DNA from: Gemmatimonadaceae bacterium
Lineage (GTDB): Bacteria > Gemmatimonadota > Gemmatimonadetes > Gemmatimonadales > Gemmatimonadaceae
Assembly (NCBI GenBank): GCA_052386875.1
Contig: JBQTJS010000050.1
Coordinates: 1,032 to 65,031 of the forward strand
Direction of reading: 5' to 3'
Length of the DNA: 64,000 nucleotides
Every line of letters starts with the position of its first letter. Position 1 is the stretch's first letter. Positions 1 through 63,084 of this stretch are shown one piece after another. The notes beneath the pieces are model-generated. The model was not told where the DNA came from. It made no database searches and worked only from the letters and a program-made list of their open reading frames with translations. Made by a program: the position numbers and the translations under genes.

Positions 1-675
1 GGCCATCCATGCCGTGGCGATGACGATGGGCCGCAGCCGCAGCGTGCGCCAATGCAGCACTCCGAAGGCAGCCATGGCGGGGATCAGCGCGATCCCTGCG
101 GTGCGATAGAGCAGTGCCAACGAGCCGCACAACACGAGGCCGGCGATCCGACGGAAGTTCCAGTCGCGGCTTCCGTCTGCCAGCGCGATTGTCGCCCAGC
201 ACATCGCCGCGAACGGGACGTCCGAAACCGCGCGCGTCCCCGCGTCACTCACAGCCGGTACCACTCCCACTGCGAGTATGATGATCCAGGCCGGCATCGG
301 ACCGTTAGGCGCCAGCGTACGCGCCGCCAGGATCAGAAACGCGACGGCGAACAGGGTGGTGACGACAGCAGCGACGTTTTCGTTCAACTCGAAGGCCAGG
401 CCGGCGACACTCAAGGTAAGCGGCAGACCGGGGGGGTACGCCTGGGGCCCGATCACGCGATGCGGCGTGTACAGGTAGCCCGTCTCGACATAGGGGCGTC
501 CCTGCAGGAGGGCCTTGGCATGCAGCAGATACTGTGCGTGATCGCCGGCATCGGTTGCCGGTCCCGAGTGCCAGGCGCGCGCGGCGAGAAAGGCGAACGG
601 AAGCAGCGCGAGGGCGCCTAACAAGAGGGGCCGCTTGCGGCGGCCTGTTCGCTCCTGCGCGGCGTCGCCGTTCAT
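1..675 (-). CDS. Integral membrane protein, the N-terminal part of a putative GT-C type (ArnT/PMT-like) glycosyltransferase. The start is at 675 and the gene runs off the left edge of the window.
   Basis: My own minus-strand translation from the ATG (complement of 673-675) reads MNGDAAQERTGRRKRPLLLGALALLPFAFLAARAW..DAGDHAQYLLHAKALLQGRPY.., followed by several hydrophobic helices. It is absent from the ORF track because it has no stop codon in the window. The + strand ORF 52..621 is its shadow. Confidence 0.5.
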   Translation of the reverse strand, partial: MNGDAAQERTGRRKRPLLLGALALLPFAFLAARAWHSGPATDAGDHAQYLLHAKALLQGRPYVETGYLYTPHRVIGPQAYPPGLPLTLSVAGLAFELNENVAAVVTTLFAVAFLILAARTLAPNGPMPAWIIILAVGVVPAVSDAGTRAVSDVPFAAMCWATIALADGSRDWNFRRIAGLVLCGSLALLYRTAGIALIPAMAAFGVLHWRTLRLRPIVIATAWMA

Positions 676-728
676 AGACTGTTCGGTCACTTTCGTAGCG
701 TCGTCGCTCTCGCTCGGCGGCGCGCCTG

Positions 729-1913
729 TCAACGTCGCGGCAGTGCCAGGACGCTCACGAAGAACGCGCCGAAGATCGTCTGCGCGCCGAGCATAACGAG
801 CGAGACGCCGGGGATGAGCCAGCGCATCGTCACAGTGGAGTCGAGATCGCGGAATCCCGCTTGGTACCACTGCAGTACGGCCGCCGCGACGAGTGCAGTT
901 CCCGTCAGCACGAGCGCAGCGCCGATGGCGAGCGCCCGCTCGAGCGTGAGGTGGCGAGACCAGGCCGCCAGCCGCGCGTTAGGCGGGAGCAGCCCCGCGC
1001 TGGCCGCGTACACCTTCGTCATGACGGCGAAGCCGACAGCCTGGGCACCGAGGAAGACGAGCAGAAACGACACGAGCAGCGTGTGCACGTCGAAGCGCAC
1101 GCCGCGCACTGTGAGACCCGGCATCGCCACCGCGATACCGAGCAAGCCTAACGAGCCGAGTAAGATCCCCGGGATCAGGAAGAGCCAGCGCGGCGAATAC
1201 AGTAGATAGAAACGCAGGTGTCGCCAGCCGTCCCTGAACGTGCGCAGGTGCGGCGGATGCGCAGTGCGCCCGTCACGATGCAGAGTGATGGGCACCTCGG
1301 CGATGCGAGCGCGCAGCAGCCCCGCCTTGACTACGTTCTCCGAGGCGAATTCCATCCCTGTGCAGCGCTGGTGCAGCCTCTCGTACAAGTCCTTGGTAAA
1401 GGCGCGCATCCCCGAGTGCACGTCATGGATCGGCGCCTTGAACCACGTGCGGGCCATCCACGAGAACATCGGGTTCCCCAACCAGCGATGTAGGAAGGGC
1501 ATTGCGCCGGGCATCACGCTGCCGCCCCCGGAAGGGAGCCTGCAGCCCTGCACTAACTCATAACCTTCGCGCAGCTTCTGCACGAATTGCGGGATCTCAC
1601 GGAAGTCGTAGCTCGAGTCCGCATCGCCCATGAGAAGGTACTTGCCGCGAGCGGCCGCGAACCCGTCACGCAGTGCGCTGCCGTAGCCACGACTAATCGC
1701 GTGAACGACGCGCGCCCCCATTGCCGCCGCGATTTCCGCCGATCCATCGGTGCTGCCGTTGTCCGCGACGATGATTTCGCTGCGGCATCCTGCCCGTCTA
1801 ACTCCGACCTGAGCCTTCTCCAGACACGATGCGAGCGTTTCGGCCTCGTTAAGGCACGGAATCACGACGGACAACTCGATCTCGCGAGCCGTCTCAGCTG
1901 GACTTATGATCAA
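729..1913 (-). CDS. Family 2 glycosyltransferase with C-terminal transmembrane helices (ArnC / polyprenyl-phosphate sugar transferase-like)
   Basis: 394-aa ORF with a TTG start. It carries the GT-A signature VVIPCLNEAETL..ADNGSTDGS..GDADSSYD, and its C-terminal half is multi-helix hydrophobic. Confidence 0.8.
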   Translation of the reverse strand: MIISPAETAREIELSVVIPCLNEAETLASCLEKAQVGVRRAGCRSEIIVADNGSTDGSAEIAAAMGARVVHAISRGYGSALRDGFAAARGKYLLMGDADSSYDFREIPQFVQKLREGYELVQGCRLPSGGGSVMPGAMPFLHRWLGNPMFSWMARTWFKAPIHDVHSGMRAFTKDLYERLHQRCTGMEFASENVVKAGLLRARIAEVPITLHRDGRTAHPPHLRTFRDGWRHLRFYLLYSPRWLFLIPGILLGSLGLLGIAVAMPGLTVRGVRFDVHTLLVSFLLVFLGAQAVGFAVMTKVYAASAGLLPPNARLAAWSRHLTLERALAIGAALVLTGTALVAAAVLQWYQAGFRDLDSTVTMRWLIPGVSLVMLGAQTIFGAFFVSVLALPRR

Positions 1914-2227
1914 AACGACCCCTCCCCGTTTCTCGCGGGCATGCGCACACGGTTCGAGCGCGGCGCGGTGATAGTTTGCACGTCACATGCCCGCCGCCGG
2001 AGTGGGCGCGCACTCCGGCCCCGGCAACGCATGGGCTCGTTAGGTGACCGCACCGCAGAGCTGTGTTCGTTAGGTACGGCTAGCGCCGGCGGCTGCGCTA
2101 GGACGCACGTCACAGATCGCCGCCGCGTCCGCTCGAATGGCGTGCCAATTGCGCCAGCATCAGCCCGTCACTTGCTATTCATCCGAGGCTCAGCCTGCTG
2201 CAACAATCCGCCGCGATTTTTCGCAAC

Positions 2228-2268
2228 TCAGCGAGAAAGTCAGCGAGAAAGTCAGCGAGAAAGTCAGC
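2228..2268. repeat. 12-bp perfect tandem repeat TCAGCGAGAAAG, three full copies plus a partial fourth, upstream of coxB
   Basis: Read directly from the sequence: tcagcgagaaag tcagcgagaaag tcagcgagaaag tcagc. Confidence 0.9.
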
Positions 2269-61431: not shown

Positions 61432-61562
61432 CGCAGTGCTCCGAGGTGCGGGGTATGTGTCCAGCCGCTGCCAAACTACAGCCGGACGGCAGGCAATATC
61501 GAGACCAAACCCGCAACGGAAGGATCACGCAGATAGCCCCGCTCGCCCCTATCGTCGCCCCT

Positions 61563-61937
61563 GTGTCACGAGAACGCTTACGCTTCGGTGCGCTTGGCGA
61601 GCGCGTAGCCGAGCGCTGGCTCCGCCACACCGGCTGGCGCGTCCTGCAGCGGCGTTATCGCGCGGGAAGGCGCGACATCGACCTGATTGCGGAGCGTGAC
61701 GGGCTCGTGGCGTTCGTCGAGGTCAAAGCTCGTCACGGAGCACACTTCGGCGATCCTGTCGAGGCAGTGAACTGGCGGAAACAGCGCGAGTTGCGACGCT
61801 CGGCTACGGTCTGGATAGGACGTCATGGACGGCCGGGAGAGGACTACCGTTTCGACGTCATCGGCGTGTTGCTGGCGGACGGTCGCGCCCGGGTAAGGCA
61901 CGTCGCCAACGCTTTCTCTATCCCCGGTCAGTCCTAG
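61563..61937 (+). CDS. yraN: YraN-family (UPF0102) endonuclease-like protein
   Basis: GALGERVAERWLRHTGWRVLQRRYR..GRRDIDLIAERDGLVAFVEVKAR. I chose the GTG start at 61563; the upstream part of ORF 61302.. overlaps glbN. Confidence 0.75.
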   Translation: MSRERLRFGALGERVAERWLRHTGWRVLQRRYRAGRRDIDLIAERDGLVAFVEVKARHGAHFGDPVEAVNWRKQRELRRSATVWIGRHGRPGEDYRFDVIGVLLADGRARVRHVANAFSIPGQS

Positions 61938-62037
61938 TGATTGATTTCGGCGTTTGTTCGGGATATCGTACCGCTCATTGCACGCCCGTAGATTTGGGCC
62001 GTGCCCGGAGCACACACCCTTAGCGCATAGAGGATCG

Positions 62038-63084
62038 ATGGGCACACTATCCGTCACTGACGATCGCAAGAAGGCCCTCACCCTGGCGATCGCGCAGATC
62101 GAGAAGAACCACGGCAAGGGTTCGATAATGCGCATGGGTGCCGAATCGGGCCGTGTGCGTGTGGAGTCTATATCCACCGGCGCGATCAATCTCGATGCGG
62201 CGATCGGCATCGGCGGTATTCCGCGCGGCCGTGTTACAGAGGTTTTCGGTCCGGAATCGAGCGGCAAGACTACGTTGTGCCTCCATGTCGTCGCCAACGC
62301 GCAGCGTGCCGGCGGCGTGGCCGCGTTCATCGACGCCGAGCACGCACTGGACGTCGAGTACGCCAAGAAGTTAGGCGTCGATATCGAGAACCTGCTTGTG
62401 TCGCAGCCTGACACCGGCGAGCAGGCGCTGGAGATCTGTGAGATCCTCGTTAGGTCAGGAGCTGTCGACGTCATCGTTATCGATTCGGTCGCTGCTCTCG
62501 TTCCGCGCGCTGAGATCGAAGGTGACATGGGCGATGCTCACGTCGGTTTGCAGGCGCGCCTAATGAGTCAGGCTCTGCGCAAGCTTACCGGTGCCATCGC
62601 ACGCTCACGCACCGCGGTGGTTTTCATCAACCAGCTGCGTGAAAAGATCGGTGTCATGTTCGGCAACCCGGAAACGACCACAGGGGGAAAGGCGCTCAAG
62701 TTTTACGCGTCACTCCGGCTCGATATCCGGCGCATCGGACCCGTCAAAGAGAAAGAGGAAGTCATTGGGTCCCAGGTGCGCGTAAAAGTGGTGAAGAACA
62801 AAGTTGCCCCGCCGTTCAAGCAGGCCGAATTCGACATCATGTACGCCGAGGGGATCAGCCATGTCGGGCTGCTGGTCGACATCGGCTCCGAGAGCGGCAT
62901 TATCGAGAAATCAGGGGCCTGGTATAGCTATGGTGGCCAGAGGATTGGGCAGGGACGCGAGAACGCGAAGTTGTTCCTGCGCGACAACCCAACCCTCACC
63001 ACGGAACTCGAGGACAAAGTCAAGCAGGTGCTTGGCATACGCACCGCCGCTGTGACTGCCGAAGCGGAGGGACCTGACGAGTAG
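62038..63084 (+). CDS. recA: Recombinase RecA
   Basis: Contains [19 protein letters not shown], Walker [10 protein letters not shown], and L2 loop region [22 protein letters not shown]. Confidence 0.97.

Follow-up and report, generated by a model that had tools for sequence, protein, structure and literature searches.

The 64,000-nucleotide stretch of Gemmatimonadaceae DNA considered here (assembly GCA_052386875.1, contig JBQTJS010000050.1, positions 1,032 to 65,031; hereafter the window) raises the question of why one short non-palindromic word, the hexamer GTTAGG within the octamer CGTTAGGC, recurs along it in both orientations, about one core per 600 bases, and what in the cell might read it. 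An earlier note, made from the letters of the window alone, had compared the word with the DNA uptake sequences (DUS) of Neisseriaceae and the uptake signal sequences (USS) of Pasteurellaceae. Our analysis gives about an even chance that it is indeed a self-recognition word of the uptake type, accumulated by biased uptake and recombination.

An exact recount gave 111 copies of the hexamer core (65 read GTTAGG and 46 read CCTAAC on the + strand), which is the number reported in the note, and 67 copies of the octamer (38 of CGTTAGGC and 29 of its reverse complement GCCTAACG), for which the note had estimated about 68; the claimed abundance stands at this slightly corrected figure. The densities are 1.73 hexamers and 1.05 octamers per kb. 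In a sequence with a G+C content of 64.6%, CGTTAGGC ranks first among all 8-mers (67 occurrences versus 58 of CGCCGCGC) and is more frequent than any word composed of G and C only. The enrichment over composition that had been estimated by hand was reproduced with both kinds of null model: 100 dinucleotide shuffles yielded 1.37 +/- 1.14 octamers (maximum 5), and Markov models of orders 0 to 3 predicted 1.7 to 3.9 octamers and 9.6 to 24.9 hexamers, so that 67 octamers are observed where 1.4 to 3.9 are expected. The word has a z score of 31.9, while no other 8-mer exceeded 6.4 once the word had been masked.

Alignment of the 111 hexamers revealed that information is confined to positions -2 to +2 around the core. 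The core is preceded by C in 91 copies (82%) and followed by C in 83 (75%); position -2 is mostly occupied by T (51) or G (34), and position +2 by A (37) or G (35). These tallies agree with the wider consensus (T/G)CGTTAGGC(A/G) proposed in the note, i.e. (T/G)C-GTTAGG-C(A/G). No conservation was detected outside these 10 bp in the alignment of all window copies, which indicates a bare word and not the core of a longer repeat. A reader of such a word would be sharply specific for six bases, with a softer preference for two to four more. The pentamer TTAGG follows G in 65 of 65 cases, and CCTAA precedes C in 46 of 48, both as counted previously. The first of these ratios does not, however, reflect a depletion of the other forms, since HTTAGG is equally scarce in relatives without the word (approximately 0.015 per kb, against 0.015 per kb for GTTAGG, in 197 kb). 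A first Markov estimate, which had suggested such a depletion (2 observed versus 12 to 21 expected), was dropped because these forms are nearly absent from the relatives anyway.

The next point concerns the relationship of the word to the genes through which it is written. Gene calling assigned 94% of the window to 56 genes, of which 47 lie on the + strand. As many as 93 copies (84%) lie within genes, where they are read as x-Leu-Gly (43), Pro-Asn (22), x-Leu-Thr (17) or Val-Arg (11); the frames quoted in the note for individual copies all agree with the gene calls. Every one of the four combinations of frame and orientation without a stop codon is used, and the two combinations holding TAG or TAA serve as the genuine stops of ten genes, each of the ten embedded stop codons listed in the note coinciding with the end of a called gene. 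When synonymous codons were shuffled within each gene, with the protein and the codon counts preserved, 9.4 +/- 3.1 hexamers (maximum 18) and 2.3 +/- 1.4 octamers were found in genes, compared with 93 and 57 in the real sequence. Thus, as had been argued from the variety of frames, the word is neither a codon nor a peptide effect. The codons TTA, AGG and CTA, predicted to be rare in this DNA, are indeed otherwise rare, and most TTA codons (43 of 74) sit in the word, as do 22 of the 38 Pro-Asn pairs. Overall, 24% of the synonymously permissible places are occupied (58% for Pro-Asn, 31% for Leu-Gly, 18% for Leu-Thr and 9% for Val-Arg), and copies are denser over spacers and gene ends (4.5 per kb) than within genes (1.55 per kb). 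All the close pairs noticed earlier were recovered, two of them direct (2039/2069, 9243/9278) and one inverted (60880/60899). Since copies are found in either orientation, in every frame and also between genes, the word functions at the level of DNA rather than RNA or protein.

The relatives of its RecA, UvrB and SecA proteins assign the window to Gemmatimonadaceae. A recount in relatives, as proposed in the note, showed the word to be lineage-specific. Four metagenome-assembled genomes (MAGs) obtained in independent studies, designated L161 (GCA_035253645.1), L162 (ENA ERZ1760244), L163 (GCA_040753195.1) and L166 (JGI 3300037479), have SecA proteins 81-84% identical and carry 1.8 to 1.9 hexamers per kb. 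CGTTAGGC is the top over-represented 8-mer in L161, L163 and L166, and is among the top ones in L162. Of the more distant genomes, L001, L081 and L165 have 0.4 to 0.56 hexamers per kb, with the word still the top 8-mer, and L164 has 0.11 per kb. In 18 loci of other Gemmatimonadota (197 kb) there are three hexamers in total, i.e. 0.015 per kb, about 120-fold fewer than the 1.79 per kb of the dense genomes. In a SecA tree the five dense genomes (1.7 to 1.9 per kb) form one clade, to which L165 and L164 (0.56 and 0.11 per kb) are sister, while the word-less genomes, with none, lie outside. The recovery of the same word, at the same positions, from NCBI, ENA and JGI assemblies excludes an assembly artefact or an enrichment confined to the window, two doubts raised in the note. 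In a neighbour-joining tree of UvrB, low-density L081 is placed beside word-less L087, so that the deeper history may have involved either repeated decay of the word in different lines or a transfer of its reader from one line to another. The share of full octamers is higher in the low-density genomes than in the dense ones (83% versus 58%, p = 0.014), as expected if the flanks add affinity. We also observed that the G+C content of the five dense genomes (61.6-64.8%) is below that of most word-less relatives (approximately 66-70%); the word makes up too small a fraction of the sequence to account for this.

Comparison with orthologues showed how the copies originated. At the sites of the copies, word-less orthologues encode an identical or similar peptide with ordinary codons, and the recoding takes forms such as CTG/CTC GGC to TTA GGC, GTG CGC to GTT AGG, and CTG/CTC ACC or ACG to CTA ACG. 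There was no gap in 91 of 100 site-by-outgroup comparisons; 19 of 30 sites differ purely synonymously, and at the remaining 11 the amino acids are altered as well, for the most part conservatively (e.g. Ile, Met or Val to Leu). The copies were therefore generated by substitution, often of two or three of the six bases, and not by insertion. Their retention was examined in alignments with L161, L162 and L163 (77-78% DNA identity to the window). In all four sequences 16 of 22 coding copies (73%) are identical, compared with 8.7% of control hexamers (p = 5e-13), and pairwise retention is 79% for the word versus 24% for the controls. Among conserved Leu-Gly, Leu-Thr, Pro-Asn and Val-Arg pairs, 16 of 18 within the word are identical in nucleotide sequence versus 2 of 32 elsewhere (p = 4e-9); silent positions are thus frozen inside the word and scrambled outside it. 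In orthologous copies the hexamer is constant while positions 1 and 8 of the octamer drift. Eight of the nine alignable window copies are also present in L166, and the low-density genomes have in common with the window three of seven of their alignable copies. Copies have been made independently at hundreds of places and then held throughout the existence of the clade.

The arrangement of the copies along the DNA was also analyzed. GC skew is positive over the whole window, which places it on one replichore, and 84% of the genes (47 of 56) are co-oriented. The strand split is not significant in the window, either for the hexamer (65:46, p = 0.09) or for the octamer (38:29, p = 0.33); pooled over the five dense genomes it amounts to 60:40 (p = 0.005). 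This bias results from some dipeptides being common, and sense positions are in fact used less per coding opportunity (54 of 259) than antisense ones (39 of 130). In minus-strand genes the word occurs seven times in sense and five times in antisense, its orientation tracking the gene and not the replication strand. The copies are more evenly spaced than expected by chance: the coefficient of variation of the gaps is 0.73 versus 0.99 for random placement (none of 5000 simulations was as low), and the longest gap is 1,862 bp versus 3,014 bp expected. Under a stricter null, with coding copies drawn from permissible sites, the effect is weaker (0.84 versus 1.00, P = 0.03), and the number of genes without a copy (14) equals the Poisson expectation (14.0). 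Single-mismatch forms over the six core positions are at background (56 versus a Markov expectation of 45.5). Those among them that are rare in the word-less relatives exceed the frequency found there by a factor of 2 to 7, compared with a factor of about 120 for the perfect word. The scarce enrichment of mismatched forms was at one stage taken as an argument against uptake sequences; this was withdrawn, because 2 to 7 times over the word-less baseline matches the fall published for DUS and USS (82 to 92-fold from perfect to mismatched forms, accompanied by even spacing; PMC1939737). The inverted pair 60880/60899 folds as RNA at -33.8 kcal/mol (z = -3.9) across the ftsK stop. It is a single case, comprising 2 of the 111 copies, and the other close pairs in the window are all direct.

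Hyper-abundant oligomers have been divided by Elhai into three classes: Chi-type polar signals, HIP1 (highly iterated palindrome 1) of cyanobacteria, and uptake sequences (PMC4390886). Chi, KOPS (FtsK-orienting polar sequences) and repetitive extragenic palindromic (REP) elements fit the word poorly, and HIP1 poorly in part. The DUS, which are read by the minor pilin ComP, are likewise non-palindromic, occur about once per kb in both orientations without polarity, lie in genes and more densely between them, and are lineage-specific, with related genomes varying in density and flank preference; their perfect copies also greatly outnumber the mismatched ones. Exact DUS copies are kept in all Neisseria genomes in 71% of cases, with a spacing tied to conversion tracts (PMC2397512), compared with 73% for the word. 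The differences are that the DUS core measures 10-12 bp, whereas the word has 6 invariant and 8-10 preferred bp; that some inverted DUS pairs form hairpins at gene ends, a role taken by only 2 of 111 copies here; and that DUS hosts are host-associated Betaproteobacteria, whereas the word belongs to uncultured soil Gemmatimonadaceae known only as MAGs. The USS arise by substitution as well, have a strong consensus and a non-coding preference with many coding copies, form occasional inverted pairs and are stable over long periods (PMC1626085). Like the word, they persist across species with saturated silent sites, combine a strong core with weaker flanks, are read in several frames (65% of USS copies are coding, versus 84% here) and shape some amino acids (at 11 of 30 sites for the word); the 9-bp USS core is, however, accompanied by AT-rich flanking segments at helical-turn spacing, and the word has no such outer segments. 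At the level of sequence, all hallmarks of DUS and USS appear to be matched. The comparison drawn in the note held in the sequence-level tests made here (strand symmetry, strength of consensus, excess outside genes, evenness of spacing, origin by substitution, conservation of single copies between species, restriction to one lineage, and one hairpin pair), but this footprint is not specific to uptake: a methylation word of the HIP1 kind or an array of chromosome-binding sites would leave a similar one.

If the word does belong to the uptake class, its build-up may be envisaged as follows. A sequence-specific protein of the lineage would bind duplex DNA containing GTTAGG in either orientation, and best within the flanks (T/G)CGTTAGGC(A/G); the likeliest candidate would be a surface or periplasmic part of a DNA-uptake route based on type IV pili. 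Word-bearing DNA from relatives would be taken up and recombined more often than word-free DNA, so that point mutations or imported tracts which create copies would spread and those which destroy copies would be replaced (molecular drive), possibly with reinforcement by selection for same-species exchange. The end state would be a saturation of the permissive places (synonymous codons, conservative changes, stops and spacers) at about one copy per 0.6 kb. We infer a reader within the uptake machinery and biased uptake as the driving force. That this subclade of uncultured soil Gemmatimonadaceae actually practises sequence-selective natural transformation with GTTAGG/CGTTAGGC is a tentative proposal, to which we give slightly less than an even chance. 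Recombination does occur in soil populations of Gemmatimonadetes, and abundant soil bacteria have been proposed to possess a ComEC-linked competence (PMC7305173).

With respect to the machinery, the window encodes a PilT/PilU retraction ATPase (444 bits versus a curated threshold of 319). Its gene (55273-56469) lies between accB and accC, in a stretch (54744-57848) that aligns with L001, L002 and L003; the pilT/acc arrangement is common to genomes without the word. A minor-pilin cluster encoding a GspH/FimT-like prepilin and a PilV-like protein was found after relA in L161 (15577-16690); neither the window nor L163 has it at that place. This cluster may lead to a DNA receptor. Classification of its minor pilin by sequence, as FimT or as ComP-like, was rejected, because only the N-terminal pilin helix matches solved structures. 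PilT and these minor pilins are compatible with uptake, but not specific to it. The genes recA, ssb and radC, which the note had already considered weak support, carry no weight, as the same genes occur in the same order in word-less relatives.

Several observations weigh against the uptake explanation. The only uptake-machinery gene seen in the window is pilT, which is equally present in word-less relatives; ComEA, ComEC, DprA and a candidate receptor were not seen there. The searchable literature contains no report of natural transformation or uptake sequences in Gemmatimonadota, and links neither this word nor any other sequence of the uptake type to the phylum. The invariant core has only 6 bp, compared with 9 to 12 bp for USS and DUS. 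By simple arithmetic, random DNA of 50% G+C carries the hexamer about 0.5 times and the octamer about 0.03 times per kb; discrimination against foreign DNA of moderate G+C content would therefore be much weaker than with DUS, and only the octamer would discriminate well. A sharp, short, asymmetric core with drifting flanks suits the site of a modification or restriction-type enzyme just as much, and the retention and even spacing of copies fit selection for any intracellular function equally well. Moreover, in view of the UvrB tree, the history of the word may not be a simple single origin.

The window consists entirely of core chromosome. The RHH-PIN module within it (650 bp) is free of the word against an expectation of 1.1 copies, and its counterpart in L163 has one copy. 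A scan of viral contigs with SSB revealed no relative exceeding 62% identity, and none of the contigs was rich in the word. The toxin-antitoxin modules RHH-PIN and Xre-RES flank the sugar-nucleotide genes of the window, about 5 kb apart (5964-6610 and 11549-12542), and adjoin each other in L163 (107-1933).

Among the rival explanations, a methylation-linked word of the HIP1 kind is a possible though rather unlikely one. An orphan or restriction-type methyltransferase of the lineage would in this case read an asymmetric hexamer, modifying e.g. the adenine in CCTAAC, with a function in repair, stimulation of recombination, control of replication or marking of self DNA; a repair ratchet or selection would create the copies and selection would keep them. 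The sharp asymmetric 6-bp core with its drifting flanks speaks for such an enzyme, since modification enzymes of types IIS, IIG and III usually recognise short asymmetric sites, and the presence of the word in possibly non-sister genomes would fit a transferable enzyme gene. The targets of active restriction systems, on the other hand, are normally avoided and not enriched. No methyltransferase or nuclease gene is present within the 64-kb window, and the single-step neighbours of the word are not depleted, contrary to what a deamination-repair ratchet would produce. The only published methylome of the family, from another genus (Gemmatirosa), lists RGATCY, ATGCAC and CCAGN7TCA, but not the word (PMC3974934). 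HIP1 itself (GCGATCGC) is, like the word, a hyper-abundant octamer located in genes (reaching one copy in 350 bp, with a 15- to 300-fold over-representation) whose copies are conserved beyond codon conservation (PMC5861425), and it includes methyltransferase sites (PMC4390886). It differs in that the described HIP words are all palindromes, whereas the word is asymmetric and has no known cognate methyltransferase; in its range, which covers nearly a whole phylum as opposed to one subclade of one family; and in a reported periodicity of 10-90 kb, a scale too long to be judged in 64 kb. Its function, debated for decades, is now suspected to lie in transformation, which it reportedly boosts only if methylated (bioRxiv 10.1101/2024.09.10.611283; also 10.64898/2026.06.24.733823). 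The methylation and uptake explanations may therefore be two halves of one.

We consider it improbable that the word is bound by an abundant protein which organises the chromosome (nucleoid-associated, or acting in condensation or segregation) and requires a site every 0.5 to 1 kb, with evenness under selection. Spacing more even than chance, retained copies and independence of transcription direction would all suit such a protein, and a role in chromosome structure has been proposed both for HIP1 (PMC5861425) and, by Karlin, for uptake sequences (quoted in PMC1939737). The evenness is, however, modest when matched for opportunity, the copy-free genes follow the Poisson expectation, no candidate protein has been identified, and close relatives with the same gene order do without the word. 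Known nucleoid proteins bind degenerate or AT-rich sites, and we are aware of none that has given rise to a 100-fold excess of one exact word. A polar guide for DNA motors, either Chi-like for RecBCD/AddAB or of the KOPS/AIMS type for FtsK (AIMS being architecture-imparting sequences), is very improbable. Such signals are also short, over-represented, non-palindromic octamers acting on DNA and not on RNA or protein (PMC5861425; PMC4390886), HIP1 has been suggested to be partly Chi-like, and the FtsK of the window possesses a gamma domain. They nevertheless show strong replication-strand skew and modest enrichment, whereas the word is split 38:29 and 65:46 despite a uniform GC skew, with a bias that disappears or is reversed when coding opportunity is counted, and in minus-strand genes its orientation goes with the gene. 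Its enrichment, above 25-fold, far exceeds that of Chi. The least credible explanation is that the word has no reader of its own, being a by-product of codon usage, dipeptides or context-dependent mutation, or a remnant of REP elements or miniature inverted-repeat transposable elements (MITEs). It does fall on common dipeptides (Leu-Gly, Val-Arg, Leu-Thr and Pro-Asn), and the dense genomes are slightly lower in G+C than their relatives. Against this stand the tenfold smaller number left by the synonymous shuffle, the concentration in the word of codons that are otherwise rare, and the absence of any other 8-mer with a comparable z score; nor would a neutral mutational source hold the same positions while synonymous sites scramble. 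An inserted element is excluded by the lack of conservation past 10 bp and of gaps relative to orthologues, and a REP or MITE repeat in particular (at least 20 bp, intergenic and inserted) was rejected on account of the unconserved flanks, the absence of gaps and the 84% of copies that lie in genes.

The individual copies are listed in Table 1. The genes through which they are written encode core housekeeping products (cytochrome oxidase, sugar-nucleotide enzymes, SecA, RadC, RelA/SpoT, UvrB, TsaE, TsaB, SSB, Tol-Pal, TatC, LptD, the products of hut genes, AccB, AccC, PilT, FtsK, RecA and RecX). The overlap of hutH and hutU measures 23 bp (36658-36680), and the hutH stop lies within the word copy 36676-36681. 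SecA (14314-17667) has 1117 amino acids, and the 290-position SecA_DEAD Pfam model is stretched over residues 8-558, which implies that the motor domain, as predicted from sequence, holds a large insertion; the SecA proteins of relatives are similarly long (1106-1123 amino acids). The open reading frame of cytochrome oxidase subunit I (3275-5797) encodes 840 amino acids, of which the COX1 domain covers only residues 36-481, and the unannotated C-terminal 360 residues may represent a fused subunit. Two apparent "dialect" words in other genomes were discarded: the signal in L004 is an 18-bp tandem repeat, roughly GCGGGAnCTGCGAAAAGA, of about nine units (5473-5650), and that in L083 is ordinary Glu/Arg coding. 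In L003, a Gemmatimonadales MAG without GTTAGG, the palindrome CGGGCCCG occurs six times in 12.7 kb (at 3405-8747), about 10-fold above what an order-3 Markov model predicts, and possibly represents a distinct over-represented palindrome.

Table 1. Copies of the GTTAGG/CCTAAC core in the window (retention, given as kept or window only, from alignment with L161, L162 and L163; entries for L165 and L166 from further comparison)
Sequence	Coordinates	Strand	Location	Reading or role	Relatives
CGTTAGGC	304..309	+	hypothetical gene	Pro-Asn	
TGTTAGGC	617..622	-	hypothetical gene	x-Leu-Gly	
CGTTAGGC	978..983	+	glycosyltransferase-2	Pro-Asn	
CGTTAGGC	1147..1152	-	glycosyltransferase-2	x-Leu-Gly	
CGTTAGGT	2039..2044	+	intergenic	direct pair with 2069	
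CGTTAGGT	2069..2074	+	intergenic	direct pair with 2039	
CGTTAGGC	3067..3072	+	coxB	x-Leu-Gly	
CGTTAGGC	3203..3208	-	coxB	Pro-Asn	
AGTTAGGT	3457..3462	+	coxA	x-Leu-Gly	
CGTTAGGC	3622..3627	-	coxA	x-Leu-Thr	
CGTTAGGC	4226..4231	-	coxA	Pro-Asn	
CGTTAGGC	4702..4707	+	coxA	x-Leu-Gly	
CGTTAGGC	5224..5229	+	coxA	x-Leu-Gly	
CGTTAGGC	5476..5481	-	coxA	x-Leu-Thr	
CGTTAGGC	7222..7227	-	DegT aminotransferase	Pro-Asn	kept L161, L163
CGTTAGGT	7575..7580	+	DegT aminotransferase	x-Leu-Gly	kept L161, L163
AGTTAGGC	8650..8655	+	UDP-sugar dehydrogenase 1	x-Leu-Gly	kept L161, not L163
TGTTAGGC	8920..8925	+	UDP-sugar dehydrogenase 1	x-Leu-Gly	kept L161, L163
AGTTAGGT	9243..9248	+	UDP-sugar dehydrogenase 1	TAG stop	window only
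CGTTAGGC	9278..9283	+	intergenic	direct pair with 9243	kept L161, L162, L163, L165
TGTTAGGC	9786..9791	+	UDP-sugar dehydrogenase 2	x-Leu-Gly	kept L161, L162, L163
CGTTAGGT	10122..10127	+	UDP-sugar dehydrogenase 2	x-Leu-Gly	kept L161, L162, L163
CGTTAGGC	10197..10202	+	UDP-sugar dehydrogenase 2	x-Leu-Gly	window only
CGTTAGGG	10551..10556	+	UDP-sugar dehydrogenase 2	x-Leu-Gly	kept L161, L162, L163
CGTTAGGC	10871..10876	+	epimerase	x-Leu-Gly	kept L161, L162, L163
CGTTAGGG	11307..11312	-	epimerase	Pro-Asn	window only
CGTTAGGC	11548..11553	+	epimerase	TAG stop	
CGTTAGGA	11810..11815	+	RES toxin gene	Pro-Asn	
CGTTAGGC	12752..12757	+	intergenic		
TGTTAGGT	13977..13982	+	nucleotidyltransferase	x-Leu-Gly	window only
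TGTTAGGC	14694..14699	+	secA	x-Leu-Gly	kept L161, L162, L163
CGTTAGGC	14952..14957	-	secA	x-Leu-Thr	kept L161, L162, L163
TGTTAGGC	15457..15462	-	secA	Pro-Asn	kept L161, L163, L166
CGTTAGGC	16125..16130	+	secA	x-Leu-Gly	kept L161, L162, L163, L166
GGTTAGGC	16578..16583	+	secA	x-Leu-Gly	kept L161, L162, L163, L166
CGTTAGGC	16870..16875	+	secA	Val-Arg	kept L161, L162, L163, L166
CGTTAGGC	17352..17357	+	secA	x-Leu-Gly	kept L161, L162, L163, L166
CGTTAGGC	19004..19009	-	relA/spoT	x-Leu-Thr	kept L161, L162, L163, L166
CGTTAGGC	19538..19543	+	relA/spoT	x-Leu-Gly	kept L161, L162, L163, L165, L166
CGTTAGGC	20285..20290	+	relA/spoT	x-Leu-Gly	kept L161, L162, L163, L166
CGTTAGGC	20869..20874	-	relA/spoT	TAA stop	kept L161 only
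CGTTAGGC	21705..21710	-	uvrB	x-Leu-Thr	
CGTTAGGG	22254..22259	-	uvrB	x-Leu-Thr	
CGTTAGGA	23003..23008	-	tsaE	x-Leu-Thr	
CGTTAGGC	23367..23372	-	tsaE	Pro-Asn	
CGTTAGGC	23979..23984	+	tsaB	Val-Arg	
CGTTAGGC	25769..25774	+	epimerase 2	Val-Arg	
CGTTAGGT	26731..26736	-	tolQ	Pro-Asn	
CGTTAGGG	26892..26897	+	tolQ	x-Leu-Gly	
CGTTAGGC	27653..27658	+	intergenic		
CGTTAGGC	28062..28067	+	tolA/TonB-like gene	Val-Arg	
TGTTAGGC	28361..28366	-	tolB	x-Leu-Thr	
CGTTAGGC	29456..29461	-	tolB	x-Leu-Thr	
CGTTAGGT	29641..29646	+	tolB	TAG stop	
CGTTAGGT	30092..30097	+	pal	x-Leu-Gly	
CGTTAGGG	30757..30762	+	cpoB-like TPR gene	x-Leu-Gly	
CGTTAGGC	30962..30967	-	cpoB-like TPR gene	Pro-Asn	
CGTTAGGG	31104..31109	+	cpoB-like gene	TAG stop	
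CGTTAGGC	31958..31963	+	lptD-like gene	x-Leu-Gly	
CGTTAGGG	32120..32125	-	lptD-like gene	x-Leu-Thr	
CGTTAGGC	33083..33088	+	lptD-like gene	x-Leu-Gly	
CGTTAGGC	33845..33850	+	lptD-like gene	x-Leu-Gly	
TGTTAGGC	34247..34252	+	lptD-like gene	x-Leu-Gly	
CGTTAGGC	35711..35716	+	hutH	x-Leu-Gly	
CGTTAGGT	36676..36681	-	hutH (inside hutH/hutU overlap)	TAA stop	
CGTTAGGC	37083..37088	-	hutU	x-Leu-Thr	
CGTTAGGC	37462..37467	+	hutU	Val-Arg	
CGTTAGGG	37816..37821	-	hutU	Pro-Asn	
GGTTAGGC	37944..37949	+	hutU	x-Leu-Gly	
CGTTAGGC	38254..38259	+	hutU	Val-Arg	
TGTTAGGC	38530..38535	+	radical SAM gene	Val-Arg	
CGTTAGGC	39033..39038	+	radical SAM gene	x-Leu-Gly	
CGTTAGGC	39901..39906	+	lysR-type gene (minus strand)	x-Leu-Thr	
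CGTTAGGC	40855..40860	+	dioxygenase-like gene	x-Leu-Gly	
CGTTAGGC	41281..41286	+	intergenic		
CGTTAGGC	41709..41714	-	hypothetical gene	x-Leu-Gly	
CGTTAGGG	42275..42280	-	hypothetical gene	Val-Arg	
CGTTAGGT	42503..42508	-	intergenic		
CGTTAGGC	42884..42889	-	small hypothetical gene	x-Leu-Gly	
CGTTAGGC	43333..43338	+	intergenic		
AGTTAGGC	44184..44189	+	hutI	x-Leu-Gly	
CGTTAGGC	44484..44489	+	hutI	x-Leu-Gly	
GGTTAGGC	44665..44670	-	intergenic		
CGTTAGGC	45602..45607	-	TPR protein gene	x-Leu-Thr	
CGTTAGGC	46344..46349	-	TPR protein gene	Pro-Asn	
CGTTAGGC	46821..46826	-	TPR protein gene	Pro-Asn	
CGTTAGGC	47990..47995	+	polyprenyl synthase	Val-Arg	
CGTTAGGC	48220..48225	+	polyprenyl synthase	x-Leu-Gly	
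CGTTAGGC	50082..50087	-	surA/ppiD-like gene	x-Leu-Gly	
CGTTAGGC	51625..51630	-	TPR protein 2 gene	Pro-Asn	
CGTTAGGC	51763..51768	-	TPR protein 2 gene	Pro-Asn	
CGTTAGGG	52275..52280	-	TPR protein 2 gene	x-Leu-Thr	
TGTTAGGC	52336..52341	-	TPR protein 2 gene	Pro-Asn	
CGTTAGGC	52987..52992	-	TPR protein 2 gene	Pro-Asn	
CGTTAGGC	53629..53634	-	aroQ	TAA stop	
CGTTAGGC	53713..53718	-	M24 peptidase gene	Pro-Asn	
CGTTAGGG	54732..54737	-	intergenic		
CGTTAGGC	56465..56470	-	pilT	TAA stop	
CGTTAGGC	57585..57590	+	accC	Val-Arg	GTGCGC in word-less relatives
CGTTAGGC	58368..58373	-	comB-like phosphatase gene	x-Leu-Thr	
CGTTAGGC	58592..58597	+	comB-like gene	TAG stop	
CGTTAGGC	58994..58999	+	ftsK	x-Leu-Gly	
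CGTTAGGC	59735..59740	+	ftsK	x-Leu-Gly	same copy in low-density L001
TGTTAGGC	60413..60418	+	ftsK	x-Leu-Gly	
CGTTAGGC	60506..60511	-	ftsK	x-Leu-Thr	Leu-Met/Ile in relatives
CGTTAGGC	60880..60885	-	ftsK	TAA stop; hairpin left arm	
CGTTAGGC	60899..60904	+	intergenic	hairpin right arm	
TGTTAGGG	60980..60985	-	globin gene	x-Leu-Gly	
CGTTAGGT	61418..61423	+	globin gene (minus strand)	x-Leu-Thr	
AGTTAGGC	62370..62375	+	recA	Lys-Leu-Gly	CTG/CTC GGC in relatives
CGTTAGGT	62449..62454	+	recA	Val-Arg	GTG CGC/CGG in relatives
GAGCCTAACGGCCG-TAAC-CGGCGTTAGGCTC	60877..60907		between convergent ftsK and globin genes	hairpin of two inverted copies, without T tail	

To conclude, the phenomenon is of a known kind, whereas its occurrence in this phylum, the word itself, the shortness of the core and the gradation among relatives are new. 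To our knowledge, hyper-abundant strand-symmetric words have been known from three places only, namely Neisseriaceae, Pasteurellaceae and cyanobacteria, and the purpose and build-up of such words are matters of argument, with selfish drive, "safe sex" within a species, repair and chromosome structure all under discussion. A fourth independent case, in a phylum that is abundant in soil and barely cultured, indicates that they are not peculiar to host-associated Proteobacteria. The natural series of relatives with 1.8, 0.5, 0.1 and 0 hexamers per kb allows the gain and loss of the word, and the genes that co-vary with it, to be studied by comparative genomics. In practical terms, the word could provide a handle for the transformation of these organisms and a simple means of assigning contigs to the clade during binning. 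Should it prove to be an uptake word, it would be the first outside Proteobacteria (or the second, if HIP1 of cyanobacteria turns out to be one), its core would be unusually short, and the density gradient would show such a system at different points of its accumulation or loss. A role in marking DNA for uptake would further imply frequent, selective gene exchange within a major lineage of soil bacteria.

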